Source of the DNA: Somniosus microcephalus
Taxonomy: Eukaryota
Assembly (NCBI GenBank): GCA_052327205.1
Contig: CM126217.1
Location: 38,750,001-38,814,000, forward strand
Length of the DNA: 64,000 bases
Reading direction: 5' to 3'
This document shows, piece by piece, positions 19,341 through 63,059 of this stretch. Both the position numbers and the translations under genes were made by a program. Below the pieces are notes generated by a model. That model was not told the DNA's origin, did not search any database, and was given only the letters and a program-made list of their open reading frames with translations. How positions within the stretch are numbered: position 1 is the stretch's first letter; each line of letters opens with the position of its first letter.

Positions 19341-20493
19341 TGAAATCTAACACAGAATTAGAACACAGTAGGAGCAGAACAAGGCTACATGGCCCCTGGG
19401 CCCACTCCACTACCCACAGGGCCATGACCATTGTATAATGCTTAACTGTCATTTCCAGGTCGGGCAGAAGGTACCTCAACATCTTGCTCTGAAAATTGAG
19501 TGTGCAAAATACGTTTATCCAAAAACACTGGTCTATCATACCCCTAGTGCCTCACTGTCGATAAATGGTTTATTGAAATTGCACTTTTCTATAATGTTGC
19601 CAATCTGATGTAATAATCTCCCTTCTATAGTCTGCATGAAGAAAGCCCTGCAGTGGAGCAGCAGCCAGCTCCAAGGAACTATCTTGCACATCACAGAAAC
19701 CTTGGCTTTTCTGAAAGTATCTATGCAGATCCAACCAAAGCTGTCGCCCAACAGCCACCTGAGCCAGAGCGTTACCAATCTACTGTTGAAGCTTCTCCAG
19801 CTCCAGTGCAAGATAGTTGAAAGATCCAAGAGATGCAAGTATATATATCTCAATTTGCTATTGTGCACTCTTGGGTTGCTGCACATTCAGGATCCCAAAC
19901 TTTTTGGTCAAATGCTAGAGATTAGAGAAAATAAACCAACAGCTGGATTAAGAGAACCTGCCATTACTTTACAGCACTTGTATCTACTGGGACTGCAGTC
20001 TAAATCCTCCATTCAAGATTCCACTTTACTGCAGCAGTCAAACATTCCATTGTTGAGGATCTCATGAACCTGGCAGTTCCATTTGCCGAAGATGATTTAT
20101 GGGCTTCAGTTGTTGAAGCCTGAGATTGAGAACACTTGCACTTGCTTTGGAACACTTCTGGAAAGGTGGTTTAATCTGAGTTAAATATTCTAATCCATCT
20201 TCTATCTCCTTGCTGGATACTGGGGCACTATTATCCCTCTAGTGCCTTGCTCTAGTGGCCATTATTCATGATGAATGTTGCAGGCCACAGCTGCATTGAA
20301 TCTTTCCTCACCTGAAGTGTGCACATGCATACTTTGGCAGAGGTGACCATCTAGGGGCTTAAAAAAAAATCCTTCCTTAGCCCAGAGGCACTGGGACTAA
20401 CTAGTGACAGTACTGCTACCATGGCTGAGATCAGCCATTCAATGTAGATTGGTGATCAGACCTAGTCTGCATCAATGAGATGGAGATTTTACA

Positions 20494-20682
20494 AAATGAT
20501 GCTGGAAATCTGAAATAAAAACCAAATGCTGGAGATACTCAGCAGGTCAGGCAGGTGAAGAGAGGAACAGAGTTAAAGTTTCAGGTCGATGACAAAAGGT
20601 CATCAACCTGAAACATTAACTCTTTCTCTTCACAGATGTTGCCTGACCTGCTGTGAGTATCTCCAGCATTTTCTGTTTCTAT
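20494..20682. mobile_element. Palindromic Penelope-like pLTR insert with 13-bp TSD (degenerate hammerhead cores)
   Basis: Arms tgctggagatactcagcaggtcaggca...gtttcaggtc / cctgaaacattaactct...tgcctgacctgctg..gagtatctccagca. TSD TGGAGATTTTACA at 20481-20493 and 20683-20695. Confidence 0.8.
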
Positions 20683-20979
20683 TGGAGATTTTACATCCCT
20701 GTGGTATGGATGTCTGGTTTAAATAATTGTAGGGGCAAAATGGATTTTTGCCAAATTAGGTTGTTTTACATGTAGGTTGTTTTACATTTCTGTGATGTAG
20801 GTTGTTTTACATTTCTGTAATGTAGGACTCCAAATTAATCTCCAAATTTAGTGTAGAATGAGATGAAGGTCTCCTAGCTGTAAAGCAGAAGTAGTGGAGG
20901 CAGTACTTACCAAATTGTAGCAAGTGTGTTTTTTGAGGAGAGGGGGAGGCGGATGATGTTTCAAAATGCAGGAAGGTAT

Positions 20980-23254: not shown

Positions 23255-23410
23255 CTTCCCCTCCCCACTTTCCCTGCCCCACACTTGCTTAAAATCTGTT
23301 ACATCTCTAACCTTTTCCAGTTCTGATGAATGGTCATTGACCTGAAATGTTAACTGTTTCTCTCCACATATGCTGCCTGACCTATACTGAGTAGTTCCAG
23401 CACTTTTTTT
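23255..23410 (+). mobile_element. Single-arm Penelope-like pLTR with hammerhead motif at 23318-23356
   Basis: CAGTT-CTGATGA-A-TGGTC-ATT-GACCT-GAAAT-GTT-AACTG, followed by the same arm sequence as the 57.5-kb palindrome. Confidence 0.7.
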
Positions 23411-24559
23411 CTTTGTATGAACATGAACTGGCTTGTGGCTGAACCATTTACAGTGAACTGCCCCCTCTGCTGGCTGTGCCCTAGAAGAACAACCTCCAAG
23501 TTGTTCCTTTTATAATTTTGTACAAAAGGAGATGTTTGTGTTTGAGCAAAGGACACAGGGAAAAAAACAAGGAAGCAAAAGTACTATCTGGCCCTGGGAA
23601 ATGAGATAAAAGGTTGGGATAGACAGATAAAATCTAGAGAAGTAAATAAAGTATTTATTTAAAAAAAAAAAAAAATTGCAGATAAGAAAGCTACAGATAA
23701 GCTGGGATGTAGAACTAATAGCCCACAAGTGACATGATCTGCAAATTCATGACTGGTGAGTCATGGTTGAAAGTATATAGAAGCAGGTTTAATTGAGTCA
23801 CTCTTCACCATAGAGCTTGTTCATTCTCTCTACAGATAGCACTCCCTTAGCACTGCTTGGGAGCGTTAACCTAGATTTTTGTGCTGAAGTGTCTGGACTG
23901 GGACTTGAACCCACAACCTTCTGACTTTGAGGCGAGAGTGCTGCCCACTGAGCCTCGTCTGACACACGTTCAGCAGTGAACCTCAGCTGAACCTTCTTGA
24001 TCTTTAACGATATCCTCAGTAAGAAATCACAACAGAAAAAGATTGAGATATAAGGTGTTATAAAAAAAATAAAACACCTGAAAGTGCTTCACATAAAATT
24101 AATTGATTTCAGAGGCTAATAGGGCAGTCAGTTTATTCACAGCAAGATCCCACAGAGGTGACCAATTCATCTGTTTTTGATGGTGCAAGGTGAATAAGGA
24201 ATATTTACAAGGAAATCAGAACCTTTTAGCAACATAACCAAGTTATAACACACATGACTTTAAAGATTTGTGCAATTTGCTACTGAGAATAATGTATCTG
24301 GATCTTGCAGGTTATACAGGATGCATTCCAGTACTGTATTATACTATGTCATGTGGGTATATAGAAAGGTCATTGTGGCTTTGAATGAGGGAAGGAAAAA
24401 TCAGGCAGGATTCCCACTCCTGATTGATTGTAGCTTCCTCTGAGGAGTCTTCAGGCTCATGCTGTTCCTCTGGGCTAGTGGGGATGGGTGCTTGTGATGG
24501 TTCTGTGGGGGAGTAAAGGAAAGAGTCAGATGTGATGCCAAGGTTACATGCATATTGCA

Positions 24560-33922: not shown

Positions 33923-34206
33923 GCTTATGCTTCAACCACAGATGGCTGGCATATGGCTATGAATGTGTGGATGACCTTCTTAAAATGCCATATATCATCT
34001 CTGCAATAAACTGTGCTTTCCTATCTCTCTCAGCACCATCATTACAAATGCAAGTCGCCCTGAGCCCTCAATGTGCAACTTCCATTTCCCAGAACACATA
34101 GGCCAGAACTTCAACTGTTTGCCATCACTTTTGTTTAACTCATCACAGAAGGATGACAATCAAAAATATACAACAGAACAAAACACCCAAGTGATTACCC
34201 TTGTGA

Positions 34207-36108: not shown

Positions 36109-39100
36109 TGTAGCCTGGGCCCATTCAAACACAATCAGAAACGAGAAATGAAAGGCTGAGGCTGCATGGGCCCCTTAAAAACAACTGCAGCAATGACGTC
36201 ATCAGAGGCGACTAATAGACCCGATCCCACCCATTGGACCAGGCAGCGCGCACGACGGGACTTAATAGGACACTTAAATTAAAATCTCAATTTGGGAGCA
36301 GCTAAAACCGGCCACGGTTCCGGAACCCGCACACCAGGCAACCCGACTCCAACCCGCCTCCTCTATTAAATTTGCGGCCAATGTATTTGTTTAATTTCTC
36401 TGCCATTTTCTTATTCCCCATTATAATTTCTCCTGTCTCAGCCTGTAAGGTACCCACATTTACTTTTGCTAATCTTTTCCTTTTTACATACCTATAGAAG
36501 CTTTTACAGTATGTTTTTACAGCTAGTTTACTCTCATATTCTATTTTCCCTTTCTTTATCAATTTCTTGGTCCTCCTTTGCTGAATTCTAAAATCCTCCC
36601 AATCCTCAGGCTTTTTGGCAGGATTATAAGCCTCTTCCTTTGATCTAATACTATCTTTAACTTCTCTTGTTAGCCACGGTTGGACCACTTATCCTGTGGG
36701 GTTTTTATGCCTTAAAGGACTGTATATTTGTTGTAAATTATGTATTAATTCTTTAAATGCTCGCCATTGCTTGTCCACTGTCATACCTTTTAATGTAGTT
36801 TCCCAATCTACCTTAGCCAACTCGCCTCTCATACCTACATAGTTTGCTTTGTTTAGATTTAAGACCCTAGTTTCGGATTTAACTAAATCACTTTCAAACT
36901 CAATATAAAATTCTATCATATAAGTGCACTTTCCAGCAGTGATTAATGATCAATGACCTGGAACCTTGATTTCTTTTTCCTCTCCCACACTTGGGAAATA
37001 GGAAAGAAAGATTAGATTAAGAGAGAGAGAGAAAAGAGGCAGAAAGGAAACGTAAGAAAAATCTTTTTTACATTTAAAATTTGTCATTTAAAAAATCTCT
37101 AACAACAATTCACTACCTGAAGGAATGAGACTCCAAAGTTTAAATTGTTCACTTTCTGGGCCAGGCAGGTGGATTGGCAGTCATTAACAATTATCACATC
37201 GTTAAAAGGGTACTTGCACTGTTAAGTTCCAGCCCTAACTTTCTGCGGCGAGTTTAATGGACAATTAACATGCAAATCCGACAAGTTCTTAAAAATAATG
37301 GAGAGGCTAAGGGTGAGATGCGATTTGTGCAAAGCAAACAGCAGAGTGGCGTAAATCGACCAGTAAGTCCTGGAGATTCGCAACTCATGGCATATCTCAT
37401 CATCCCCTAAATTTGCTGACCAATTTGCACATTAGTAACAGCGTGCGTTGTTCACACACCATTATTTTTTCAGCAAGTTCTGGCCCAATATTAATACTCA
37501 CAAGAAAGGATGTTATGTTGGGCAGATTTATATAGGACGTATCCAGCTTTGATCAGGGTGAAGATCAGCTGGGATAGCAAGGATCATATTTCATTGAAGG
37601 AGCAAATTCAGCCGTCTTCCCCTTGGTTCCTGGAGCTCTGGGAGTTTACTTGGAGCCGATTCTGTGAGCCTTGACTTAATGCTTGGAGCTATGGAAAATC
37701 CTTCTTGAAGCAAAAATATACGTCACAGCCTAGATCTTCTGATCCATTTATTTTAAATGGGTTAATGCCGGGATTGAAATAACCTTCATTGAAAAATATA
37801 GGCTCATGGTCCAATTCATTTGAACTGTTCCAGGTTAATTTAGGAAATATATTGAATTCTCCCAGCCTAGAGGGTTAATTTTTTGTGGATGCCACTTTGA
37901 AAGAACAATTCAGAGGCTTCCCCAAAGACCTAATGGGACAAATGCACTTCACTGTGTGTTATTGCACATATTAAGTGTCGGGGCAGTGTCAAGGGAGTTT
38001 TCCCACCACCCCCCCACCCCGATCAGGGAATGCTTGATGGTGGATGCATAAAATATAAATGATCTATTATTCAACATTCCCATTTTCACAGAATAGAAGA
38101 GAAACGGCAAGAAATTGAAAAAAAATAAACATGAAACCAGAACGTACTCTTGGAAAAGGGAAAAAAAAAGCTACTTTTAATTCACAACATTGAGTACTGT
38201 AAATGTCTGGATACAGGGATTGTAAAAGAGGTGACTTTGTCATCGAGCTGACTGTTACTGAGAATATTTGAGAATGGCCATGAATTAGCATAGCTGTCAG
38301 GATTTTAATGTAATTGAAGGCTTTCTTCAATATGGTCATAAATCTCAGAGAAACAAGGGCATCTTGATAAATTCCTCTGAGAAAGAACAGTGTCATGCTG
38401 AATTTCAACATGAAAGGTGAGTATAACTGTGACTCTCAAGAGAAATTAGATTGTGCAGCTCTGGAAGGGACAGGAAAATCTGAATGAGAAATAAGAGAGT
38501 TGAATCCATGTGAAAAATCCATGGTGAGCTCTGAAAAAGCAATGGCCCCAGCACTGACCCTTGGGAAACACCACTGTCTACCATCCTCCAGTCTGAAAAA
38601 CAGCCATTTACCACAACTCGCTGTTTTCTGTCTTAAGCCAATTCCTTATCCAAGCTACCACTGACCCACCTATTCCATGAGCCTCAATTTTGTTAACCAG
38701 CCTTCTATGTGGTATTTTGTCAAACACCTTCCTAAAATCTAGGGTTGTGAAGGGGCGGAAAGTTTCCGGTAAATTTCCACGGGAAGTTTAGCTTGGGAAT
38801 TTTGCCCAAAAAAGCACGTGCTAGCATAATATTGGGGTTTTCTTTGTATCTCTTTCATTTTTTTTCACAGGTCGTTTCTTAAAATTACTAACAGAGATGG
38901 AATCTTAATTATTAAGGAATTTCTTAATCAATATATGTTTATCTTCTTACTTGGCTTGTTTTAATAATTACAAGTTTTATGTGTGGCTGTGAACAAATGT
39001 GTCCTGATTGGTTGGATGAGTGGATGAGCGATTAGCTCCCTCTATTGGTGATGTAGCGTTGTGCATGCACAGGTCATGCTTCCATCACATGGAGCATCAG

Positions 39101-40303: not shown

Positions 40304-40429
40304 GCGCCATCTAGTGGACAAAGGGGAAAAGTTTTTCTCTTCAGCAGTTTAAAATGAACAGCGCCATCTAGTGGACAAAAGGGGGAAAGTTTTTCTCTTA
40401 GAAAAAAAAATAACAGCGCCTTCTAGTGG
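40304..40429 (-). promoter_or_regulatory. Three tandem CTCF-consensus motifs in the Gypsy 5' UTR
   Basis: GCGCCATCTAGTGG (40304-40317, 40361-40374) and GCGCCTTCTAGTGG (40416-40429). The reverse complement CCACTAGATGGCGC fits CCASYAGRKGGCRS. Confidence 0.65.
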
Positions 40430-40464
40430 AAAAAGGCGGGAAAACCTCTTCAGTAGTTTTAAAA

Positions 40465-43400
40465 ATGGCTAAAGAAGCTCGGTTGTCAGAATTTGTTGCC
40501 GACATAGAAGATTGGGACGCATATGTAGAAAGGCATGAACTTTATTGCATAGTAAACAAGGTGAAAGATGACGAAAAGGCAGCAACCTTATTAAATTCTA
40601 TGGGGGCAAAAACATACGGTCTGCTGAGGAATCTTCTTACTCCAGAAAAGCCAGCAGACAAAACGTATGCTCAAATTGTTGATACGTTAAAGGAACATTT
40701 AAACCCTAAGCCACCATTTATAGCGGAAAGGTACCGCTTTTACAGACGCGACCAAAGGAATGATGAGTCGCAGGCAGCCTATTTGGCTGAGCTCAGACGG
40801 TTGTCCAAACATTGCCAGTTTGGAGCCTTTTTGGCGGAAGCGATCAGAGACAGATTTGTCTGTGGCATGTTAAATGAGAGTACACGAAAACGGTTGCTGG
40901 CCAAGAAACAGCTCAGCCTAGATCAGGCGATAGAAATAGCATTGGCACATGAAGCAGCAGCACAGGGTGCTGCCCAAATACGACAAAATACAACCGGCTA
41001 TGACACCCATGAGGTGACATTTCACAAAGGTAAATGCTACCGTTGTGGCAAAACCACCCACGACCAAAGTAATTGTTGGTTTCGTGATAAAATATGCCGG
41101 CAGTGTGGGAAAAAGGGGCATATAGCGAAAGTTTGTCGGTCGGGTACGAAACCCAATAGTGGGGGCAGTCCGAGCAGTACCAAGGCAAGGACAAAAATAC
41201 ATAAGATATCTGACAGTAGCTCAGACGAGTCACAGGAAGGCACAAAAGCAGAGCCTAAAGGTCTGGGATGTCTCAAGTTATATGGTGTAGACAAAACGGA
41301 GGACCACAGCACAATGTGGGTTAAAATGAAGGTAGCAGGCGTCGAAGTTAATATGGAGCTGGACACGGGTTCAGCCCTATCAGTAATTAATGAACAAGAT
41401 TATAACAGGCTGTTCAAACGCATTCCCTTAAAGGATACCGAAATCAAATTAAAAACATATACGGGACAAAAAGTTTACCCGAAGGGAAAAATGCAAGTAA
41501 CAGTTAAATACAATGGCAGAAAAGTGCCAGGACTTTATTTATACGTCCTACCAAACGGCGGACCACCACTTTTGGGTAGGGAATGGATAAGAAAAATCCA
41601 TTTCGACTGGAAGTCGATACACGAGATAAAAGTAGAGACCACCAAGGATGATACAACCATTACAAGCAGGCTGTCGAAACTATTGGCAAAAACGCCAGAG
41701 GTGTTCCAACAAGGGCTGGGGACCTTAAAGGACATTAGAGCAAAAATAACTATTGCTCAAGACGCAAACCCCAAGTTTTGTAAGGCCAGACCGGTGCCTT
41801 ACGCCATCCGGCCAGCTGTGGAAGCAGAACTGGATGCCTTAGAGAGTGCAGGTGTCCTTACAAAGATTGAGTGGAGCGAGTGGGCCACGCCCATCGTCCC
41901 AGTTATAAAGAAATCTGCAAATAACACGCCGGGGGAACCAAAGAAGGTTCGCATTTGCGGGGATTTTAAAATAACTATTAACCCAGTCCTGCACACGGTA
42001 CAGTATCCGCTGCCACGGATAGAGGACATATTCGCATCGTTAGCTGGGGGTAGACACTTTACGAAGATTGACCTTTGTCAAGCTTATTTACAGATGGAGG
42101 TGGAGCAGGACTCGAAAAAGCTCCTAACGATTAACACCCACAAGGGATTGTACCAGTACAATCGCCTGGTATTTGGTGTGGCGTCCGCCCCAGCCATATG
42201 GCAGAGGACCATGGAACAGGTCCTACAGGGCATTCCAGGAACGCAGTGCTACCTGGATGACATCCTGGTGACAGGACAAACGGATAACGACCACCTCGCT
42301 AACCTGGAGCGAGTACTTCTGCGGTTGCAACAATACGGACTCAGGGCGAACAAGCAGAAATGTGAGTTTTTCCAGGAACGTATCTCATACTGTGGTCACA
42401 TTATAGATAAGGAAGGCCTGCATAAGTCCCCAGAAAAGATCGAGGCAGTAGTGAAGGCCCCGCCCCCTGAGAATGTATCTCAGTTACGATCATTCTTAGG
42501 CCTTATAAACTATTACCATAAGTTCCTCCCGAACTTATCGTCCATTTTACATCCACTAAATTCATTGCTGCAAAAGGGAGTCTCCTGGAATTGGGACGAA
42601 GCGTGTGAGGCTGCTTTTAAAAAGGGTAAACAACTCATTACATCAAAGGAAGTGCTCGCACACTTTGACCCAAAAATGCCAATGAGGTTGGCATGTGACG
42701 CCTCCCCGTACGGTATAGGGGCAGTGTTGTCACACAAATTTCCCAATGGGACGGAGAGGCCAATAGCATTTGCCTCAAGGTCGTTAACTACAGCCGAAAG
42801 AAACTATGCGCAAATCGACAGGGAGGCCCTCAGTCTGGTGTGGGGTGTAAAAAAATTCCACCACTATCTACATGGACAACGTTTCACACTACTGACGGAT
42901 CATCAACCGTTGGTGTCGATATTTAATCCAACAAAAGGGGTGCCCCTGATGACGGCCCAAAGGCTACAGAGATGGTCACTGTTCTTAGGAGCACACCAGT
43001 ACCTTATCGAATATAAGGGTACCAAACAGCATGGCAATGCGGATGGCCTGTCGCGGCTACCATTGCCTGCAGAGATCGAAGAGATAGTACAGGACCCCGT
43101 GGAAATATATCATACGGCGGTTATGGAACACTTGCCCATCACCAGCCAATGTATCGAGCGGGAAACACAGAATGACCCGACACTGGCAAGGGTTTACGAA
43201 TTGACCGTGAAAGGCTGGCCGGCGCAGGGTGACGCATCATTGCCGGCGTTTTCGGCAAGGAAGGACCAGTTGTCCGTATGCCGGGGCACATTGATGTGCG
43301 GAGCCAGGGTGGTGGTCCCTCAAAAATTACAACATAAAGTGTTGCGGGACTTACACGAAGGTCATCTGGGGGGTGTCAAAATGAAAAGCCTCGCCAGAGC

Positions 43401-44475
43401 CTACGTCTGGTGGCCCGGCATTGACAGGGACATCGAGGAAGTAGCAAAAGCATGCCAAGGGTGCCAGATGGTACAGAACGTACCACCCCAAGCCCCACTA
43501 CATCCGTGGGAGTGGCCCTCAACGCCGTGGCAAAGGATCCACGTGGACTTCGCTGGGCCCTTCATGGATGCGATGTTCCTTATTGTAGTGGACGCCCACT
43601 CAAAATGGCCGGAGGTCATAAAGATGTCATCAACGACAGCCGAAAAGACGGTCGCAGCCTTAAGGACCATTTTTGCCCGAAACGGGGTGCCCGAGCAAGT
43701 CTGTTCGGACAATGGGCCACAATTTGTGGCAGAAGAATTTCAAGCATTCCTAAAAAGGAATGGAGTGCGACATTATACGTCCGCACCATATCATCCGGCT
43801 ACAAATGGGCTGGCAGAGCGATTTGTACAGACTTTTAAAAAGGCCATCAAGGCGATGGGGGAGGAAAGGTTGCCACTACAACACAAGGTGGACAATTTCC
43901 TATTCGCGTACCGTAATGCTGCACATACGGTGACCAACCAGGCCCCCGCTGTCATGTTCTTTAATAGAAGGTTAAGGTCTCGCCTCGAATTGCTCAGACC
44001 AAACATCCGGAGAGATGTGGAAAACCGAGTATTTCGTAGGGCTCCTGACAGACAGACACGGAGCTTCGAGGTGGGGCAGCAAGTGTTGGCCCGTGATTAT
44101 AGAAATGAAAAGTGGCGGTCTGGTACGATAAAGGCCCGCCAGGGACCTTTGATGTACACAGTGGATACTGGGGACGGCATAATCAGACGACATGCTGATC
44201 AACTTGTGGAGTCCAGAAACCCAACTGATTCACTACCTCAAACGTCTCAGCACATTGTTCCAGCGGAATCACGGCCCAGCTCGTCGCTACAGAAGTCTCA
44301 GGATGGCGAGGAGTTCAGCACTCCAGTGAGCTCCACGGCACAGGATGTGCCATCAGACACCGACGACTCCAGCGATGAAGTGGTGACGGAAGTACCGCCG
44401 CCTACACCGAGACCGACTAGAGAAAGACGTTACCCTAGTCGAGACAGGAGGCCTCCTCAGAGACTGAATCTATAA
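40465..44475 (+). CDS. Gag-Pol polyprotein (1336 aa from ATG 40465): gag with 2 CCHC knuckles, protease, RT, RNase H, integrase
   Basis: CYRCGKTTHDQSNC, CRQCGKKGHIAKVC, LDTGSA, YLDD, CDAS, HVDFAGP / SDNGPQF / NGLAER; no stops. Confidence 0.96.
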   Translation: MAKEARLSEFVADIEDWDAYVERHELYCIVNKVKDDEKAATLLNSMGAKTYGLLRNLLTPEKPADKTYAQIVDTLKEHLNPKPPFIAERYRFYRRDQRNDESQAAYLAELRRLSKHCQFGAFLAEAIRDRFVCGMLNESTRKRLLAKKQLSLDQAIEIALAHEAAAQGAAQIRQNTTGYDTHEVTFHKGKCYRCGKTTHDQSNCWFRDKICRQCGKKGHIAKVCRSGTKPNSGGSPSSTKARTKIHKISDSSSDESQEGTKAEPKGLGCLKLYGVDKTEDHSTMWVKMKVAGVEVNMELDTGSALSVINEQDYNRLFKRIPLKDTEIKLKTYTGQKVYPKGKMQVTVKYNGRKVPGLYLYVLPNGGPPLLGREWIRKIHFDWKSIHEIKVETTKDDTTITSRLSKLLAKTPEVFQQGLGTLKDIRAKITIAQDANPKFCKARPVPYAIRPAVEAELDALESAGVLTKIEWSEWATPIVPVIKKSANNTPGEPKKVRICGDFKITINPVLHTVQYPLPRIEDIFASLAGGRHFTKIDLCQAYLQMEVEQDSKKLLTINTHKGLYQYNRLVFGVASAPAIWQRTMEQVLQGIPGTQCYLDDILVTGQTDNDHLANLERVLLRLQQYGLRANKQKCEFFQERISYCGHIIDKEGLHKSPEKIEAVVKAPPPENVSQLRSFLGLINYYHKFLPNLSSILHPLNSLLQKGVSWNWDEACEAAFKKGKQLITSKEVLAHFDPKMPMRLACDASPYGIGAVLSHKFPNGTERPIAFASRSLTTAERNYAQIDREALSLVWGVKKFHHYLHGQRFTLLTDHQPLVSIFNPTKGVPLMTAQRLQRWSLFLGAHQYLIEYKGTKQHGNADGLSRLPLPAEIEEIVQDPVEIYHTAVMEHLPITSQCIERETQNDPTLARVYELTVKGWPAQGDASLPAFSARKDQLSVCRGTLMCGARVVVPQKLQHKVLRDLHEGHLGGVKMKSLARAYVWWPGIDRDIEEVAKACQGCQMVQNVPPQAPLHPWEWPSTPWQRIHVDFAGPFMDAMFLIVVDAHSKWPEVIKMSSTTAEKTVAALRTIFARNGVPEQVCSDNGPQFVAEEFQAFLKRNGVRHYTSAPYHPATNGLAERFVQTFKKAIKAMGEERLPLQHKVDNFLFAYRNAAHTVTNQAPAVMFFNRRLRSRLELLRPNIRRDVENRVFRRAPDRQTRSFEVGQQVLARDYRNEKWRSGTIKARQGPLMYTVDTGDGIIRRHADQLVESRNPTDSLPQTSQHIVPAESRPSSSLQKSQDGEEFSTPVSSTAQDVPSDTDDSSDEVVTEVPPPTPRPTRERRYPSRDRRPPQRLNL

Positions 44476-46769: not shown

Positions 46770-49700
46770 TGTATGTATGAAGGGGACGGTCTACACCTGA
46801 ACTGTGAGGGAGCCGATGTCCTCGGGGTAATATTTTCTATGGCGGTTCGGGAGGATTTAAACTAATTTGGCAGGGGGATGGGAACCTAGGTAGTGGAAAA
46901 GAGGGAAGTCATATGAAGTCAGAAATAGATGGTAGAAAGGTGAGAAGCAATAAGCAAAGGAGAGAAACACAAAGGGCCAAACTAATTCATAATGAGAGTG
47001 TGAAAAAAGCAAGCCTGAAGGCTTTGTATCTTAATGCTAGAAGCATTAGGAACAAGGTGGATGAATTAGTTGTGGAAATAGAGGTAAACAAGTATGATTT
47101 GATTGGGATTACAGAAACGTGGCTGCAGGGTGGGCAAGGCTGGGAACTTAACATCCAGGGATATACAATATTTAGGAAGGATCGGCAAAAAGGTAGGGGA
47201 GGTGGGGTAGCATTGCTGGTAAAGGAGGGGATTAATGCAATGGAAAGGAAGGATATTAACTCGGATGAAACGGAATCTGTATGGGTAGAAATGAGAAATA
47301 GCAAGGGGAGGAAAACGTTAGTGGGTGTGATATATAGGCCTCCAAATAGTAATATGGAGGTGAGGGAAGGCATAAAAAGGGAAATTAGAGAAGCGTGCGA
47401 TAAGAGCACAGCTGTCATCATGGGTGACTTTAATTTACATATTGATTGGACTACCCAAATTAGTAAAAATTCTGAGGAGGAGGAATTCCTGGAATGTTTT
47501 CGGGACGGTTATCTGGACCAATATGTCGAGGAGCCGACTCGAGATCAGGCCATTTTAGACTGGGTATTGTGCAATGAGAAGGGACTTATCAGCAATCTTC
47601 TTGTACGAGGCCCCTTGGGTCAGAGCGATCATAATATGATCGAGCTCTCAGTCGAGATGGAGAGTGAGGAAATTGAATCAGAGACTAAGGTCCAGAACTT
47701 AAATAAAGGGAATTACGAGGGTATGAGACGGGAATTGGGTAAGATTGATTGGGTGGTGTTTCTGGGGGGATTGACAGTGGATAGACAATGGCAAGCATTC
47801 AAAGATAGAATGGAAGAATTCCAGAACATGTTTATACCGGTTTGGCATAAAAATAAACCTAAAAAGGTGACTCAACCGTGGATAACGAGGGAAATTAGGG
47901 ACAGCATAAAATCAAAAAAAAGGGCATATCAACTGGCAAAAAAAAGCACCAGACCGGAAGATTGGGGACAGTACAGGATACAGCAAAAGAGGACAAAGGG
48001 ATTAATCAGGAAGGGGAAAATAGAATACGAAAGTAAACTTGCAGCAAACATAAAGACAGACTGCAAAAGCTTTTATCGGTATATCAGGAGGAAAAGACTG
48101 GTAAAATCCCAAGTCGGTCCCTTGCAGTCCGATTCGGGAGAATATATAATGGAGAATAAGGAAATGGCAGACCAATTAAACTCATACTTTGGTTCTGTAT
48201 TCACAAAGGAGGACACAAATAACCTCCCAGGAATATCGGCAAACATAGGGACTAATGAGAGGGAGGAGCTGACAGAAATTAGTATCTCTAGGGATATGGT
48301 GTTGGGTAAGTTGAGGGGACTGAAGGCCGACAAATCCCCGGGGCCTGATAAACTACATCCTAGGGTACTTAAGGAGGTGGCCCTGGAGATAGCAGATGCT
48401 CTAAGGATCATCTTCCGGAACTCCATTGACTCGGGAACAGTACCCGTGGATTGGAGGGTAGCTAATGTTACCCCAATATTTAAAAAGGGGGGTAGAGAGA
48501 AAGCAGGGAATTATAGACCAGTAAGCCTTACATCGGTTGTGGGCAAAATGCTAGAGTCCATTATTAAGGATAAAATAGCGGAGCACTTGACAAATGGGGA
48601 AAGGATCGGACAGAGTCAACATGGATTTACAAAGGGTAAATCGTGTTTGACTAATCTGCTGGAATTTTTTGAGGAGGTAACTGGTAGAATAGATGGGGGA
48701 GAGCCAGTGGATGTGGTGTACCTTGACTTCCAGAAAGCCTTCGATAAGGTTCCACACAAAAGATTATCATGCAAAATTAAGGCTCATGGGATTGGGGGCA
48801 AAGTATTAACGTGGATAGAGAACTGGCTGGCAGATAGAAAACAGAGAGTTGGAATAAACGGCTCGTTTTCGGAGTGGCAGGCAGTGACCAGCGGGGTGCC
48901 GCAAGGATCTGTCCTGGGACCCCAGCTGTTCACAATATATATAAATGATCTGGATCAGGGAATTGGATGCAATATTTCCAAATTCGCTGACGACACTAAA
49001 CTAGGAGGAGGGGTGGGCTCTGATGAGGATGTCAGGAGGCTACAGTGCGATTTGGACAGGTTGGGGGAATGGGCGGATACGTGGCAGATGCACTATAATG
49101 TGGATAAATGCGAGGTTATCCACTTTGGGGGTAAAAACAGGAGGGTAGATTATTATCTAAATGGCAATAGATTGGGAGATGGGGAAGTGCAGAGGGACCT
49201 GGGTGTTCTTGTGCACCAGTCACTGAAGGAGAGCATGCAGGTGCAACAGGCGATTAAGAAGGCAAATGGTATGTTGGCCTTCATATCAAGGGGGTTCGAG
49301 TATAGGAATAGGGATACCTTACTACAGCTGTACAAGGTGCTGGTGAGACCGCATCTGGAGTATTGTGTCCAGTTTTGGTCGCCCCATCTGCGGAAGGATG
49401 TTCTTGCCATGGAAAGAGTGCAACGGCGATTCACCAGGCTGATACCTGGAATGGCGGGAATGACCTACGAAGAGAGATTAAATAGTTTGGGCTTGTACTC
49501 ACTGGAGTTTAGAAGATTGAGAGGGGATCTCATCGAAACATATAAAATTATGGCAGGCCTGGACAGGCTGAATTCAGAGAGAATGTTTCCAATGGCCGGG
49601 GAGCACAGAACCAGGGGCCACAGTCTAAAAATAGCGGGCAAATCATTTAAAACAGAGATGAGGAAGAATTTCTTCACTCAAAGAGTGGTGAGCCTGTGGA

Positions 49701-49942
49701 ATTCCCTGCCACAGAGGGCTGTGAAGGCTAATTCAATAAATATTTTCAAGAGAGAATTGGATATATTTCTGAAGGCTAAGGGGATTAAGGGTTACGGAGA
49801 AAAGGCGGGGACGGGGTACTGAACTGGTAAGATCAGCTATGATCTCAGACGAAGATCAGCCATGATCTCATTGAATGGCGGAGCAGGCTCGAAGGGCCGA
49901 ATGGCCTACTCCTGTTCCTATCTCTATGTATCTATGTATCTA
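46770..49942 (+). mobile_element. Young CR1 LINE, 5'-truncated within the end of ORF1
   Basis: ORF1 C-terminus (DGLHLN...AVREDLN*) to 46865, intact ORF2, and a 3' UTR with a duplicated aagatcagcYatgatctca and (TCTATGTA)n tail. Confidence 0.93.
46913..49822 (+). CDS. CR1 ORF2 (APE endonuclease + reverse transcriptase), intact 969 aa
   Basis: NARSI, ITETW, MGDFN, SDHN; [23 protein letters not shown]. Confidence 0.95.
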   Translation: MKSEIDGRKVRSNKQRRETQRAKLIHNESVKKASLKALYLNARSIRNKVDELVVEIEVNKYDLIGITETWLQGGQGWELNIQGYTIFRKDRQKGRGGGVALLVKEGINAMERKDINSDETESVWVEMRNSKGRKTLVGVIYRPPNSNMEVREGIKREIREACDKSTAVIMGDFNLHIDWTTQISKNSEEEEFLECFRDGYLDQYVEEPTRDQAILDWVLCNEKGLISNLLVRGPLGQSDHNMIELSVEMESEEIESETKVQNLNKGNYEGMRRELGKIDWVVFLGGLTVDRQWQAFKDRMEEFQNMFIPVWHKNKPKKVTQPWITREIRDSIKSKKRAYQLAKKSTRPEDWGQYRIQQKRTKGLIRKGKIEYESKLAANIKTDCKSFYRYIRRKRLVKSQVGPLQSDSGEYIMENKEMADQLNSYFGSVFTKEDTNNLPGISANIGTNEREELTEISISRDMVLGKLRGLKADKSPGPDKLHPRVLKEVALEIADALRIIFRNSIDSGTVPVDWRVANVTPIFKKGGREKAGNYRPVSLTSVVGKMLESIIKDKIAEHLTNGERIGQSQHGFTKGKSCLTNLLEFFEEVTGRIDGGEPVDVVYLDFQKAFDKVPHKRLSCKIKAHGIGGKVLTWIENWLADRKQRVGINGSFSEWQAVTSGVPQGSVLGPQLFTIYINDLDQGIGCNISKFADDTKLGGGVGSDEDVRRLQCDLDRLGEWADTWQMHYNVDKCEVIHFGGKNRRVDYYLNGNRLGDGEVQRDLGVLVHQSLKESMQVQQAIKKANGMLAFISRGFEYRNRDTLLQLYKVLVRPHLEYCVQFWSPHLRKDVLAMERVQRRFTRLIPGMAGMTYEERLNSLGLYSLEFRRLRGDLIETYKIMAGLDRLNSERMFPMAGEHRTRGHSLKIAGKSFKTEMRKNFFTQRVVSLWNSLPQRAVKANSINIFKRELDIFLKAKGIKGYGEKAGTGY

Positions 49943-54856: not shown

Positions 54857-57435
54857 CCTCTCTGAGTAAAGAAGTTTCTCTTGAATTATTTATTAGTGAC
54901 TATCTTATATTTATGGCCCCCACAAGTGGAAACATCTTCTCTACGTCTACCCTATCAAACCCCTTCATAATTTTAAAGACCTCTATCAGGTCAACTTCTC
55001 CTTTCTGGAGAAAAGAGCTCCAGTCTGTTCATTGGGATCAATAGCTCCTCGCTCCAGAAAGTGATGGTGGCAGGATTCACTATTTAAATAATATTGTTTT
55101 AAAAATCAACAGAAACAAGAGCTTGGATGATGCAATGGATTGGACATGTCTTCACTTCTGGGGCCTGTGCCTGAATTCAGACCAGATCAATGGCACGGAC
55201 CTCTCTCTCTGTGGCTGTAGGAGTCCTAAATGAAGTGATTTGGGGACATCAGTTCCAAGTCCACAACACAGAACTGTGTTAATTAGCATTCAATTGATAC
55301 TCTAATAGGCCGGTGATAAGAATGCCTGATGAGAATATTATCTCACTGGTGCAGTGGAAGGTGTTGCTCTGAGGTAGTGGTTAAAGCACATTGTTGGGCA
55401 GAGATAGGGAGCTTTACTTTGCTATGACTGACCTGGAAGTACTTGATATGGACACAAAGTAGAAAAATGTAATATTCTGTTCCTCAGCAATGATATTTGT
55501 TATATTAATGGGAACTAAATAATACACAAGTACCAGAAATAGACAGAGAATACACTGATAGTCTCACCACATGAAACAAGAGAGCATGATCTAAATCAAA
55601 AAGAGATGAACACTATTAGAATTACAGTACCACAGTTACTAGAGGTAGGTTTATTAGATGGGGATTGCTGAATTCTAATACAATTATCTCCAGTGACTCA
55701 TAGTAATGATTCAGGACCAGTGACTTAATGAAAATGTGTTCAGTTGACCTTTTTATGGTTTAAGGGGAAGATAAGCTCTGTGTCATTTCCATCACAAGGG
55801 TATAGTGTGAACGATACACTTCATTGAATTCAGCACCATCACGTATTGTGCTTGTAGAGAACAAAAGGTTGTCCATCATAAAGATGATTGGAACTTATGA
55901 GGCTTGAGAGGGGAGTTGTTGGAGAATGGGTGCACAAACATCCACTCGCTTATTCAAGAATTAGTAACCTATCGTGATTGGGTAGCAGCAAAGCCAGCTA
56001 TTGCTGCTGAAACGCTGCATCTGATGGAGTCTGGGGTTTGTCCATTCTACGGTCAGAGCGACAATGAGTTGTGCTGCCACGCTGGAGGGATTTCCTGCTG
56101 TCCACTTAGTAAGGGCTCACAACCATGCTATTTAGATGTTCCATGACCATTTAGTGACTTTCCTCCATGGAGGAGAGGTAAAAGGGGTCTCTATAGTTTA
56201 GTTGGTTCCAAGAGAACGCACCTGACGATGGGAAATTAGAACCGACGTCCCCTGTAGCGGACTCGGTTATCAAGTACCTCGATCAGGTAGGTTCAGTGTA
56301 CTTCACCAGTGCTGTTGATAATTAACCAGCACATCGACTCCTTGATGGGACTTCGATATACAATTTTTCTGTTTATGGCTCGGAAGCACCGTGGTATATT
56401 TTTGCTATGTTAAAGACGCTATATAAATGCAAGTTATTGTTCTAGAGGGGCTGGCCTGTTGCTCGGGATAGGATTTTTCCCACTTAGCTTTGGATAACCC
56501 TGTAAGCCAGTGCCCTCTGTGGGCAAGTGGTCATAGCAAGATAAGCAGCGGGAAGCTTACCAGTGCTGTGTGTTGGTGAGCTGTGCAATGTTGGCTGGTA
56601 CAGCTTCAGTAGTACCTCTTGTGTACACGTGGGGTCTCTAAGTCTTTGCTCTTGCCAACCTATGCTAAATTCCCTGGCTGTAGGTCAATAAAGGGTGTCC
56701 CTATGGAGAGATTGTGCACTCCATGCCAGGGTGTTAGATACGCTACTTACGAGGATTTCTGCATGATGATGGGGTTCTGTGCCGGTCAGACACCTTGCTG
56801 ACCAAATAAAATGCAGGTTGGGTTCTTGATCTTCATTCAAACAAATTGGTTTATAGCAAGAGTGTTTAGGAATATACCACATGGATCATCATTTTCACAC
56901 AGCTCTAAGATGCTGTCATCTTTATTTTAATTCCCCGGCTGAATTTCTCCCCTTCTTTCTTGAAGACATTGACCCATGCTGGGGGCATCTTCCATGTTCC
57001 AATGGTTGCAGAACCTTTCTGGTACATCCCACAAATGGCCATTCTCCATGCCATGTGTGATAGTGAGTGTCAGCAGCCGATGCAAATCATGGGGAGCCTA
57101 GTATCATCCTGATTCCTGTTCTCAGCAGATGTTTAAACAAACACACTTTCCAGACTCACTAGATAGCAATCTGGAGTGGGTACTCTTGCTTATTTTTCAC
57201 TTTTCTTGCTCAGATGTGCTGAGTCCAATTGTAGTGCTTCATCTCCTGCCCTGGTTGAGATTGGCAACATGGCACAGCTTAGGAAATGAACCTGGGATGG
57301 TCTAGTTTGTGTGGCTTGCTGCTACACTCAGAGCTTTCTTTACCCACTAGGCTATCGGGGAGTTATTTTTTAAGCAGAGTGTATGGTGCAGAACATGCAT
57401 TCATAAGTTACCTGCAGCCAAGCCATGCAGTATCA

Positions 57436-57674
57436 CAATAGCAAAATACTGTGGATGCTGGAAATCTGAAATAACAACAGAAAATGCTGGAAATACTCAG
57501 CAGGCCAGGCAGCATCCGTGGAGAGAGAAACAGAGTTAACGTTTCAGGTCTGGGACCCTTCATCAGAACTTATGATTCTGATGAAGTTCTGATGAAGGGT
57601 CCCAGACCTGAAACGTTAACTCTGTTTCTCTCTCCACGGATGCTGCCTGACCTGCTGAGTTTTTCCAGTGATTT
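57436..57674. mobile_element. Palindromic Penelope-like pLTR insert with 13-bp TSD
   Basis: ~85-bp near-perfect inverted arms. TSD CCATGCAGTATCA at 57423-57435 and 57675-57687. Confidence 0.85.
57585..57621 (+). ncRNA. Minimal type I hammerhead ribozyme motif (identical copy on minus strand 57534-57570)
   Basis: AGTT-CTGATGA-A-GGGTC-CCA-GACCT-GAAAC-GTT-AACT: core CUGAUGA and GAAA, helix I AGUU/AACU, helix II, palindromic AACGUU helix III. Confidence 0.7.
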
Positions 57675-58051
57675 CCATGCAGTATCATACTGGCCTAGCA
57701 AGTATCCCTTTCAACCGAGTGAGAATGTGATAATAAATTGAATATGGGTTATATTGTAGATGGGGATTAATAAATGATAATTATTACTTTTACCTTCAAC
57801 AATTTTTGATGTCAATATTTATTGTAATTTGTCAAATTGTGAGTTTAAATTTACAAAGTGGCTTTTCTGTGAGGTGTAAATAAGTGACTTATTTGGAATT
57901 CAATCACTGCTCATAAAACTGGATTGTTTGTTAAGGGGGCCTCCAATTAACATATTAAACATAGAAACATAGAAGATAGGAGCAGGAGTAGGCCATTCGG
58001 CCCCTCGAGCCTGCTCTGCCATTCAATGAGATCATGGCTGATCATCCAAAT

Positions 58052-60913
58052 TCAGTACCGTGTCCCTGCCTTTTCCCCATATCCCTTGATCCCTTTAGCC
58101 TCAAGAAATATATCCAACTCTTTCTTGAATATATTTAATGAACTGGCCTCCACCGCCCTCTGTGGCAGAGAATTCCACAGGTTCACCACTCTCTGGGTAA
58201 AGAAATTCCTCCTCATTTCAGTCCTAAATGGCTTACCCCTTATCCTTAGACTATGACCCCTGGTTCTGGACTCCCCGGCCATCAGAAACATCCTTCCTGC
58301 ATCTAGTCTGTCCAGACCTGACAGAATTTTATAGGTTTCGATGAGATCCCCTCTCAATCTTCTAAACTCCAGTGAGTATAAGCCCAATCGACACAATCTC
58401 TCCTCATACGTCATTCCTGCCATCCCAGGTATCAGCCTGGTGAATCTTCGCTGCACTCCCTCCATGGCAAGAAGGTCCTTCCTCAGGTAAGGTGACCAAA
58501 ACTGCACACAATACTTAAGGTGCGGTCTCACCAAGGCCCTGTACAACTGTAGCAAGACATCCTTGTTCCTGTACTTGAACCCTCTTGCTACGAAGGCCAA
58601 CATACCATTTGCCTTCTTAACCACCTGCTGCACCTGCATGCTTACCTTCAGCGACTGGTGCACAAGGACACCCAGGTCTCTTTGCACTTCCCCTTCTCCC
58701 AATCTATTGCCATTCAAATAATAATCTGCCTTCCTGTTTTTGCCACCAAAGTGGATAACCTCACATTTATCCACATTATAGTGCATTTGCCATGTTTCTG
58801 CCCAATCACCCAACCTGTCCAAATCGTACTGGAGTTTCCCGACATCTTCCTCGCAGCTTACCCTCCCGCCCAGCTTTGTGTCATCTGCAAATTTGGAGAT
58901 ATTACATCCAATTCCCTCGTCCAGATCATTAATATATATTGTGAACAGCTGGGGTCCTAGGACCGATCCTTGCGGTACCCCACTAGTCACTGCCTGCCAC
59001 TCGGAAAACAACCCGTTTATTCCAACTCTTTGCTTTCTGTCCGCCAACCAGTTCTCTATCCAAGTCAATACCTTGCCCCCAATCCCATGTGCCTTAATTT
59101 TGCACGCTAATCTCTTATGTGGGACCTTATCGAAAGCCTTCTGAAAGTCCAAATACACCACATCCACTGGTTCTCCCTTATCTATTTTACCAGTTACATC
59201 CTCAAAAAATTCCAGTAGATTAGTCAAGCATGATTTACCTTTTGTAAATCCATGTTGACTTTGTCCGATCCTGTCACTGCTTTCCAAGTGCTCTGCTATT
59301 ACATCTTTTATAATAGACTCTAGCATTTTCCCCACTACCGATGTCAGGCTTACCGGTCTATAATTCCCTGCTTTTTCTCTGCCACCCTTTTTGAATAGTG
59401 GGGTAACATTAGCTACCCTCCAATCCATGGGTACCGTTCCAGAGTCTATCGAATTCTGGAAGATGACCAGTAATGCATCTACTATCTCTAGGGCCACTTC
59501 CTTAAGTACCCTGGGATGTAGACCATCAGGCCCTGGGGATTTATCGGCCTTCAGTCCCATCAATTTTCCTAACACCATTTTCCTACAAATACTAATTTCT
59601 TTCAGTTCCTCTCTTTCATCAGACCCGATGTTCCCCGGCATCTCTGGGAGGTTATTTGTGTCCTCCTTTGTGAAGACAGAACCAAAGTATGTATTTAGTT
59701 GGTCTGCCATTTCCTTGTTTCCCATTATAAATTCCCCTGATTCTGACTGTAAGGGACCTACGCTTGACTTCACCAATCTTTTTCTCTTCACATATCTATA
59801 AAAGCGTTTACAGTCAGTTTTTATGTTCCCTGATAGCTTACTCTCATATTCTATTTTCCCTTTCTTAATTAATCCCTTTGTCCTCCTTTGTTGACTCCTA
59901 AACTGCTCCCAATCCTCAGGATTATTGCTTTTTCTAGCCAATTTATATGTCCTCTCCTTGGATCTTATGCTATCCCTAATTTCCCTTGTTAGCCACGGTT
60001 GAGTCACCTTTTTTGTTTTATTTTTATGCCAAACTGGGGTGAACAAATTCTGTAGCTCATCCATTCGGTCTTTGAATGTTTGCCATTGCCTATCCACCGT
60101 CAACCCTTTGAGCGCCATTCCCTACTCAACCCTACCCAACTCGCTCCTCAGACCATCGTAGTTTCCTTTATTTAAATTGAGGACCCTTGTCTCTGAGTCA
60201 ACTACTTCATTCTCCATCTTAATGAAGAATTCAATCATATTATGATCGCTCTGACCCAAGGGGCCTCGTACAACAAGATTGCTAATTAATCCTTTCTCGT
60301 TACATAATACCCAGTCTAAGATGGCCTGATCTCTGGTTGGTTCCTCGACATATTGGTCCAGGAAACCATCCCGTAAACACTCCAGGAATTCCTCCTCCAC
60401 AGTATTGTTACTAATTTGGTTGGCCCAATCTATATGTAGATTAAAGTCACCCATGATGACTGCTGTGCCCTTATTGCACGCTTCTTTAATTTCCCTTTTA
60501 ATGCCATCCCCAACCTCCGCCTTACTGTTGGGAGGTCTATATACCACTCCCACTAATGTTTTTTTCCCCTTAGTATTTCTCAATTCTACCCATACAGATT
60601 CCACATCATCAGAGCTAATATCCTTCATTACAATTGTATTAATCCCTTCTTTAACCAGTAATGCTACCCCACCTCCCTTTCCTTTTTGCCTATCTTTCCT
60701 GAATATCGAATCCCCTTGGATGTTGAGTTCCCAGTCTTGGCCATCCTTGAGCCACGTTTCTGTAATCCCAACCAAATCGTATTTGTTTACCTCTATTTGC
60801 GCAGCCAATTCATCCACCTTATTACAAATGCTCCTCGCATTAAGACACAAAGCCTTCAGGCTTGTTTTTTTAATGCTCTTAGACCTATTAGAATTATTAT
60901 TTACTGTGGCCAC
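58052..60913 (-). pseudogene. CR1 ORF2 interrupted by a single in-frame TAG at 60122-60124
   Basis: ORFs 60122-60913 and 58052-60118 are in the same frame. The stop aligns with Trp (LGKIDW) of the intact copy at 46913. Confidence 0.9.
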
Positions 60914-61035
60914 GTTTGATTTAAACCGTTGATTTCTCTGATTGCCACTTTTGTTTTTCTCCTTCCTATCTTTTGCTTTTATCCCTGTTTTCCTTTCCTC
61001 TGTCTCCCTGCTCAGGTTCCTAACCCCCTGCCATT

Positions 61036-61986
61036 TTAGTTTAAACCCCCCCGAACAGTGCTAGCAAACCTCCCCGCAAGGATATTTGTCCCGCTCTGGT
61101 TCAGGTGCAACCCGTCCGACTTGTACAAGTCCCACCTTCCCCAGAAGCAGGCCCAGTGCTCCAGGAAACTAAAGCCCTCCCTCCTGCACCAAGTCTTTAG
61201 CCACGCATTCATCTGCTCTATCCTCCTATTCCTATACTCACTAGCACGTGGCACCGGGAGTAATCCAGAGATTACAACCTTTGAGGTCCTACTCTTTAAT
61301 CTGCTACCTAGCTCCCTAAATTCTTGCTGCAGGACCTCATCCCTCTTCCTACCTATGTCGTTGGTCCCAATGTGAACCACGACCTCTGCCTGGTCACCCT
61401 CCCCCTTCAGAATGCCCTGCAGCCGTTCAGTGACATCCTTGACCCTGGCACCAGGGAGGCAACAAACCATCCTGGAGTCACGTCTACGGCCACAGAACTG
61501 TCTATCTGTTCCCCTTATGACAGAATCCCCTACCACTATTGCTCTCCCACTCTTTTTCTTCCCTTCCTGAGCAGCAGAAGCACCCCCGGTGCCAGGAAGT
61601 TGGCTGCTGCTGCCTTCCTCTGGTGAGTCATCCCCCTCAACAGTATCCAAATTGGTATACCTGTTTGAAAGGGGGATGGCCACAGGGGTCCCCTGCACTA
61701 CCTGCCTGCTTCTACTGCTCCGCCTGGTGGTCACCCATTTCCCTTCTGCCTGTGCAGCCCTACCCTGCGGCGTGACCAACTCATCATACGTGTAATCCAC
61801 GACCATCTCAGCATCGTGAATGCTCCACAACCCATCCATCCACAGCTCCAGCGCCTCAATACGGCCCGTTTGTAGCTGCAGCTGGATGCATTTCTGGCAC
61901 ACGTGGTCATCAGGGACACTGGCAGCATCCCTGAATTCCCACATAGAGCAAGAGGAGCATAACACGGGGCTGGGCTCTCCTGGCAT
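61036..61986 (-). CDS. CR1 ORF1: zinc finger/leucine zipper + SGNH esterase domain
   Basis: CSSC...CQKC; VVGDS, CLPGA, HIGTND, DGLHLN. Confidence 0.92.
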   Translation of the reverse strand: MPGEPSPVLCSSCSMWEFRDAASVPDDHVCQKCIQLQLQTGRIEALELWMDGLWSIHDAEMVVDYTYDELVTPQGRAAQAEGKWVTTRRSSRSRQVVQGTPVAIPLSNRYTNLDTVEGDDSPEEGSSSQLPGTGGASAAQEGKKKSGRAIVVGDSVIRGTDRQFCGRRRDSRMVCCLPGARVKDVTERLQGILKGEGDQAEVVVHIGTNDIGRKRDEVLQQEFRELGSRLKSRTSKVVISGLLPVPRASEYRNRRIEQMNAWLKTWCRREGFSFLEHWACFWGRWDLYKSDGLHLNQSGTNILAGRFASTVRGGLN

Positions 61987-63059
61987 GACTTACCCCTTTA
62001 ATTAATTTAAATTAATTCAATACCACCAGTTAAAGATATACTCTAGGGCGCTTATTTACCAACTGTCCCCACTACACCACAGAGACCCAAGAAATTATAA
62101 ACCGCAGAATTTAATCTTGTAATAAAAGAAATACTCACCAACCAATCACTTACCTGCTTCCTGGTGACGTCACATTTGGATTACTTTTTACCTCTCTCCT
62201 CTGCTGTTGAATTGGTATACCTCGTTCGCTGCCGCCGCTCTTAACTGCCGCCGGTCGCGCCTCTGCTCTCTCCCAGGTCCAAGCTCTCTCAGGGCCAGGG
62301 AACGGAGGATAGAATGGTTGCCACAGTTCTTCAATCAGCTGGTTTTCAAGTCAATGCAGGCTGGTTCCATTATTGGTATCAGTTACAACTGGTCCAAGTA
62401 TCCTGTAGATATTGAACCCTTAAACTGCTGGGTGGTTAGATGGCAGGTTTCCTGGGCTGGTCATTTGTTTTGTGTTTTAAGCTTAATTACTGGTGGTAAA
62501 ACAAATTATTGCAACAGTGAAGGCAGTCAAATGCCAGGAGGAGTTTTATTGCCATTGTATTAACCCTGTAAAAAAGAACTTGCATTTATATAGTGCCTTT
62601 CATATCCTCAGGATGTCCCAGAATACTTTACAACCAATGAAGTATTTTTTAAGTGTTGCCACTGTTGTAATGTAGGAAATGCATTACAACTAAAATAAAC
62701 ACCAACATTTTAAATAGACATTTAAAATAAACACAACTTCTGCTTGTCCAGACTTTCCTCCTCACTATTCTGTTTTTATTATTTTAACTTTACATTTATT
62801 TTAATTTTTATATCTTAAAACACTTGAGCCTCAAAATTACTGTTGATGATAGCAGATGATTGCTTAACACTTCTGTATGACATTCCTCTGTCTGCCATTT
62901 TAGTGGAGGTGCTATCTATTTATAATAAATGGGACATTCCTGTTTTAAAATAGCCCTTAGAGGATGTTATGCAAATTCATAAAGTGCAGCTAGCTAATAT
63001 TTCCAGCAGTAATTCCTAAACATCCCAGGATGTTTTCTTCCTTTCATTGATTTGAAATG

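Follow-up and report, generated by a model that had tools for sequence, protein, structure and literature searches.

A 239-bp insert occupies positions 57436-57674 of the window, the 64,000-nucleotide stretch of Somniosus microcephalus contig CM126217.1 (38,750,001 to 38,814,000, forward strand) analysed here. It is flanked by an exact 13-bp target-site duplication (TSD), CCATGCAGTATCA, which occurs in the window at 57423 and 57675 alone and cannot be extended on either side. None of 2000 random pairs of 40-nt windows placed 250 nt apart contained an exact repeat of at least 13 nt; the longest was 11 nt. The arms of the insert (57480-57571 and 57584-57675) are 92 nt each, lie head-to-head and are 95% complementary, and they are the stronger of the two inverted repeats found in the window when arms of at least 30 nt within 2 kb of each other were considered. 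The left arm extends about 44 nt beyond the right arm as a tail, which makes the insert asymmetric. From helix I of its hammerhead to the end of the tail the left arm measures 135 nt and represents only the 3' end of an element.

Both arms carry the same 37-nt hammerhead motif, identical on the two strands, and an 11-nt unit, TTCTGATGAAG, is present as two tandem copies at 57576-57597. The original prediction had described a 239-bp insert with an exact 13-bp TSD, two head-to-head hammerhead arms and an extra sequence in the spacer. The coordinates proved right, and both motifs lay where they had been placed. The features are listed in Table 1.

Table 1. Features of the palindromic insert and of related copies in the window (runs and organisms as defined in the text)
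Feature	Position	Strand	Basis or remark
Left TSD, 13 bp	57423..57435	+	exact, unextendable; single at the empty site of organism C
Long arm, pLTR-like 3' end of the Penelope-like type, element sense, 135 nt	57436..57570	-	five-arm alignment; loose-end peak at 57435
Tail of about 33 nt between two preferred family 3' ends	57436..57469	-	loose-end peak at 57469, run X3
Minimal type I hammerhead motif; predicted cut between 57538 and 57537	57534..57570	-	sequence
Junction filler, 14 nt, partial copies of the hammerhead 5' core	57571..57584		overlaps the 11-nt repeat at 57576-57597
Minimal type I hammerhead motif; predicted cut after 57617 (GUU)	57585..57621	+	identical to the minus-strand motif
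Short inverted arm without tail, 90 nt	57585..57674	+	10-18 nt short of the usual tail-less end
Right TSD, 13 bp	57675..57687	+	exact, unextendable
Second fold-back insertion, same family, 189 bp (20494-20682)	20481..20695		13-bp TSD; centre inside helix II
Older solitary copy of this family end, native sequence upstream retained	23285..23420	+	no convincing TSD

Several other elements share the window. An uninterrupted 1353-aa frame at 40414-44475 (+) has aspartyl protease, reverse transcriptase (RT), RNase H and integrase domains (Pfam) and represents an LTR retrotransposon that looks young. At 32504-33922 (+), a DDE_Tnp_4 transposase frame faces a 350-aa frame at 34207-35259 (-) with no Pfam match, a layout (32504-35259) that we take to suggest a Harbinger-type transposon. 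Long LINE-type frames, which we assume resemble CR1, are present at 46808-49822 (+; 1004 aa, uninterrupted) and 58052-61989 (-; 689 aa with RVT_1), the latter ending about 270 bp to the right of the palindrome. The 37-nt inverted repeat at 27911-27947 and 29464-29500 (76% complementary, 1,516 nt apart) is possibly what is left of decayed DNA-transposon ends. A scan for sigma-70 promoters was discarded as not applicable to an animal genome.

No RT/GIY-YIG ORF was seen among the window ORFs as read, 5 of 49 of which were scanned with Pfam. The 42-aa frame that begins at an ATG inside the hammerhead gave no match at E<=0.01 among 17 candidates in a weak search, and no longer homologue was found. 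Since no RT or GIY-YIG ORF is tied to the insert end, the label Penelope-like element (PLE) is used below in an anatomical sense only.

The repeat family and the empty target site

Four of the 24 listed public runs were compared with positions 56800-57945: contigs of runs X1, X3 and X4, from organisms A, B and C respectively, and RNA reads of run X21. Run X1 is possibly the source of the window and so is not independent of it.

The insert arms correspond to the 3' end of a repeat of very high abundance. Aligned contigs numbered 62,249, 73,945 and 51,753 in the three contig runs, with the depth concentrated on the insert; these counts do not represent copy number. Among the positions listed, loose contig ends piled up at 57435 (468, 472 and 398 contigs in the three contig runs), with a second peak at 57469 (262 contigs in run X3) and more at 57438-57440. 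The ends at 57435 and 57469 indicate that the family has two preferred 3' ends, which delimit a tail of about 33 nt. In an alignment of five arms, the tail extension was confined to the left arm in both palindromes of the window, and the right arm of the palindrome at 20.5 kb stopped near the point equivalent to 57469.

The upstream sequence of the single copy at 23.3 kb is that of the loose-end consensus found behind 57570 in all four runs (agreement 0.56-0.69). The native element therefore continues there, and the 14-nt spacer of the insert is non-native. Candidate TSDs of the 23.3-kb copy were at most 8 bp long and came from a wide search window, and they are not credible. A weak nhmmer match to the 5' part of the element at 36927-36985 (E 0.0014) is doubtful and may be a degraded copy or chance. 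Two sequence patterns compared with viral contigs gave no matches, and the six loci returned by a metagenome scan, all GC-rich (60-66%) and aligned over only 21-32 nt, were attributed to chance.

The target site is empty in organism C. In run X4 one contig (record 17; 1,603 nt) joined 57422 directly to 57675 at record positions 589/588 and covered 56800-57422 and 57675-57945 without a gap. The site in organism C, as represented by this one contig of one run, has a single copy of the 13-mer and lacks the insert, from which it follows that the insert is a true insertion. The flanks of organism C differed from the window at 28 of 860 letters (3.3%), while those of organism B, in which the insert is present, diverged by 0.3%. 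Flank contigs of both organisms A and B entered both ends of the insert; its centre was spanned by no contig among those listed. The insert was most likely acquired after the split from organism C, and it is young and lineage-restricted. Relative to the window, the flanks of organism C also carried indels of 26, 5, 10 and 16 nt (at 56912, 57046, 57361 and 57737, respectively), in line with unconstrained DNA.

The second palindrome and the question of a mobile unit

A second palindrome with a 13-bp TSD had been predicted at 20.5 kb, and its TSD, TGGAGATTTTACA, is indeed repeated exactly at 20481 and 20683. The pair had raised the question of a separate non-autonomous family, whose members would be transcribed and retrotransposed as entire palindromes, always with a 13-bp TSD. 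The 13-bp TSD of both palindromes would fit such a family, as would a class of joints at element positions 21/55 that turns up in each of the three contig runs, in no more than 8 contigs of any one run. However, the two palindromes differ in their centres, lengths (239 vs 189 bp) and helix II alleles, while within each of them the arms agree. The CUGAUGA core is absent from both arms of the 20.5-kb palindrome, in which the tail is likewise on the left arm and the arms are more diverged, and thus the catalytic core is missing from one of the two supposed members.

The joints that cross palindrome centres were also heterogeneous. The 16 readable joints, 12 from the best 15 of 545 rows and 4 from 12 of 557 between-letter rows, fell into 15 distinct pairs of arm starts, and each of the 15 listed joints was represented by at most 8 contigs per run. 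Joints gather near element positions 21 and 55 because the reference differs from the majority allele and clipping is distorted, so that some of the listed joints may not be palindrome centres. The 21/55 class itself could reflect a hot spot of microhomology, or else a palindromic subfamily that is small and mobile. Moreover, the consensus behind 57570, at the agreement given above, is the native upstream sequence and not the spacer of the 57-kb insert. TSD length does not discriminate in a sample of two, since a preferred endonuclease stagger would give similar lengths in ordinary insertions. We conclude that the palindrome is probably not a family of its own, and we regard its retrotransposition as a fixed unit as quite improbable.

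Short length, inverted arms and terminal direct repeats would also be expected of a class II MITE, or could have been left by a fold-back rearrangement of a single copy after insertion, unrelated to integration. Against both, the ends of the insert are not mirror images owing to the tail of about 44 nt on one side only, and the arms belong to the 3' end of a repeat of which a solitary copy is also present, at 23.3 kb. The palindromes at 20.5 and 57.5 kb have different centres and no shared interior, contrary to what is expected of a MITE, and the arms reach the TSD at both ends, so that the inversion dates from the insertion itself, which argues against a later rearrangement. Of all the readings weighed here, we give this one the least credence.

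The hammerhead motifs and their predicted folding

In order, the 37-nt motif comprises a 4-bp helix I, CUGAUGA, an extra A, a 5-bp helix II, GAAAC, GUU and the 3' strand of helix I. With its core, the extra nucleotide after A9 and palindromic positions 15.2-16.2, it is a putative minimal hammerhead ribozyme (min-HHR). The G10.1-C11.1 closing pair is absent from the insert copy, in which helix II is closed by G-U. The loose-end consensus shows A-U at this pair for the majority DNA subfamily, and G-C for another subfamily, seen in RNA reads. The variation among A-U, G-U and G-C indicates that the family keeps the helix II stem, and this points to a function in the source elements, not in the 57-kb stub. 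RNA reads over 57507-57570 were enriched for a paralogous subfamily with CUGACGA, a helix II closed by G-C and a GUC triplet. GUU triplets cleave more slowly than GUC triplets. Judged by its motif, the paralogous subfamily would be more plausible than the insert copy as an active ribozyme.

Rfam gave no match at the gathering score and no hammerhead among the 21 matches listed at E<=10. Matches to miRNA families at a relaxed E-value were all below gathering and reflect the hairpin alone. In a two-strand energy calculation on the 37-nt core, the hammerhead dimer had an energy of -8.5 kcal/mol and was not the lowest-energy form; this value was not used further.

As RNA, the 239-nt insert folded with an energy of -172.5 kcal/mol (z -25), and none of 200 shuffled sequences folded as well. 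In the folding model a lone arm was predicted to form helix II with a probability of 0.87 but helix I with one of only 0.07. Within the palindrome, forcing helix II alone was predicted to cost 31.8 kcal/mol on either strand, and in growing prefixes of the palindromic transcript the predicted probability of helix II was about 1e-20 in both directions. Given the head-to-head arms, transcription from either side reaches the antisense arm before the ribozyme, so that no folding window is predicted. Furthermore, each transcript contains one ribozyme, so the dimer that would be needed is impossible in cis. If transcribed, the insert would be expected to form a duplex of about 85 bp and not to cleave itself.

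These predictions bear on whether the insert is a functional RNA, either a ribozyme switch held by its antisense copy or a selected source of dsRNA or siRNA. The near-perfect hairpin (z -25), the intact and identical motifs and the presence of the insert in two organisms would be consistent with such a role. The folding model, however, predicts that the motifs are blocked by their own antisense copy, and it offers no on-state for the self-inhibiting switch that had been suggested; such a switch is unlikely. A lone motif would also be of little use, as min-HHRs were inactive as monomers and weak as dimers in vitro according to excerpts of PMC4209133. In addition, the insert is young and lineage-restricted, and the two internal differences between its arms fit neutral decay.

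The RNA reads argue in the same direction. About 24% of X21, one standard RNA-seq run, was sampled. Reads on the insert numbered 6,179, in both orientations, yet only 170 of them were at least 99% alike, and 81% continued into unlike sequence. All 23 flank bins (of 30 bins) were without reads. The insert reads in this run come mostly from paralogues. There was no pile-up of read ends in X21, standard RNA-seq being an insensitive test for cleavage, and a single run cannot show that the locus is silent across all tissues. As a source of dsRNA, which had been offered as the other possible role, the insert could serve in principle, but neither flank is covered by reads in X21. Overall, selection for a functional RNA at this locus is very improbable.

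Probable integration of a Penelope-like end and comparison with known systems

We assign a probability of about 0.8 to the reading that the insert is a one-off, very short 3'-end insertion of a hammerhead-bearing PLE, with an inverted arm likely built during integration and with ribozyme motifs that are predicted to be inactive passengers. The insert displays the anatomy of PLE insertions: a minimal hammerhead, an inverted, 5'-truncated copy arranged head-to-head, a tail on one side and a TSD. The suggestion that it is a minimal Penelope insertion thus fits the tail, the inverted arm, the TSD, the hammerhead and the empty site. The insertion at 57.5 kb is real and dated; it is of PLE type, lacks an ORF and has an inverted arm, in a layout already published for PLEs. 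The locus is ordinary, one of very many PLE-type stubs, and is probably inert.

The published layouts, cited here and below from excerpts of the papers, agree in outline. In PMC3846280 the pLTR is inverted, a 31-bp tail may be present, the TSDs measure 8-10 bp (compared to 13 bp for the insert) and palindromes lie at the head-to-head junctions. In PMC8557442 the same layout has a tail of 30-40 bp, the origin of which is described as unresolved, and in PMC2377424 the tail is 34 bp and the inverted repeats vary in size from copy to copy.

The insert could have formed as follows. A PLE RT/GIY-YIG protein acting in trans would have cut the two target strands 13 nt apart. Synthesis of the long arm would have begun at the tail end of the element RNA, primed by the left 3'-OH, and that of the short arm at a more internal site, primed by the right 3'-OH; the two cDNAs would have been joined head-to-head. 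Both cDNAs may have halted near the 5' edge of the hammerhead, and one of them may have re-aligned on an AG...AG redundancy and recopied 11 nt. We lean towards two-sided priming followed by end joining as the origin of the short arm, while fold-back self-priming of a single cDNA is a serious competitor at a little under even odds. In vitro, both target strands are cut and extended by the PLE protein of the anole, and its RT starts at two internal sites that bound the tail (PMC11167929); the anole hammerhead was cleaved only with protein, and its cleavage was not needed for insertion. In the excerpted text of PMC11167929 the two-strand priming in vitro is not linked to inversions. PMC3846280 argues for self-priming of inverted PLE ends, and PMC8557442 counts the way in which tandem and inverted PLE structures arise among the open questions. 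Short palindromes with a dated empty site, an exact TSD, an asymmetric tail and a readable junction can separate the models of inversion.

The junction itself is informative. Both arms of the 57-kb insert end at most 2 nt from one AG/UU point, at which the 11-nt stutter repeat restarts. In the native sequence, as represented by the 23.3-kb copy (23285-23330), this point is preceded by CTAAC and a pyrimidine run. We take CTAAC, the pyrimidine tract and AG to resemble a branch point and 3' splice site, and presumably also the initiator consensus. The AG/UU boundary is not obligatory, since the 20.5-kb palindrome does not stop there. Splicing from a pLTR donor to the next acceptor-like site was considered as a source of the 11-nt repeat and rejected, as no GT follows the repeat unit in the insert subfamily. 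Telomerase re-aligns on its template, and fill-in by polymerase theta would look similar to the filler. In Drosophila virilis, the intron of the PLE extends as far as the 5' end of helix I, according to excerpts of PMC4209133.

A more specific proposal is that the insert is the fossil of a dimeric PLE complex, in which two RTs with two RNAs primed on both strands and ran to the AG/UU boundary, the 11-nt repeat being a telomerase-like stutter; we consider it unlikely. At 57494 each arm has a different allele, and the two alleles are both common in the family (32%, 31% and 19% of the summed depth), a weak hint of two templates that was noticed post hoc and would be expected by chance in about 5% of cases. 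If the dimeric proposal were true, thousands of such palindromes would allow the origin of inverted PLE ends to be tested by counting.

ORF-less, hammerhead-centred PLE palindromes of sharks were not found in full-text searches of the literature, a scope that leaves out most subscription papers and Repbase reports, and this absence is weak evidence of novelty. Among known systems, animal non-LTR retrozymes (bioRxiv 10.64898/2026.07.22.740005) are also non-coding, PLE-derived and equipped with a type I hammerhead, and in the excerpted text they are present in the sole chondrichthyan sampled. Unlike the insert, which is head-to-head with one ribozyme per strand, they form head-to-tail tandems with a ribozyme in each unit; tandem units of this type were absent from 56500-58100, where the tandem repeats were just those of 11 nt and 8 nt.

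Poseidon PAc of Anolis carolinensis (PMC11167929) likewise has two 3' ends that delimit a tail, with a hammerhead about 100-130 nt upstream of them. PAc has a protein, whereas the shark repeat is known from its non-coding end alone, and the two are likened by layout. Inverted insertions of PAc are not reconstructed in the excerpts of that paper.

The metazoan min-HHRs, as excerpted from PMC4209133, share with the insert motifs the CUGAUGA and GAAA core, a 4-bp helix I, the extra nucleotide between A9 and helix II, the palindromic 15.2-16.2 without a loop III and the occurrence in opposite-strand pairs. In Schistosoma mansoni the members of such pairs are 100-700 bp apart, compared to 14 nt in the insert. 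The insert motifs further differ from min-HHRs in the G-U pair that closes their 5-bp helix II in place of the highly conserved G10.1-C11.1, and in their GUU triplet.

The closest likeness in arrangement is to the complex insertions of EN+ Penelope-like elements (PMC3846280, PMC8557442 and PMC2377424, in excerpts), with which the insert shares the head-to-head inversion, the one-sided tail of about 33 nt, the short TSD and the junction palindrome. It differs from them in having no ORF at all, in comprising only the last 135 nt of the element and in the 11-nt stutter repeat at its junction, and relative to the Adineta PLE (8-10 bp) its TSD is longer, at 13 bp.
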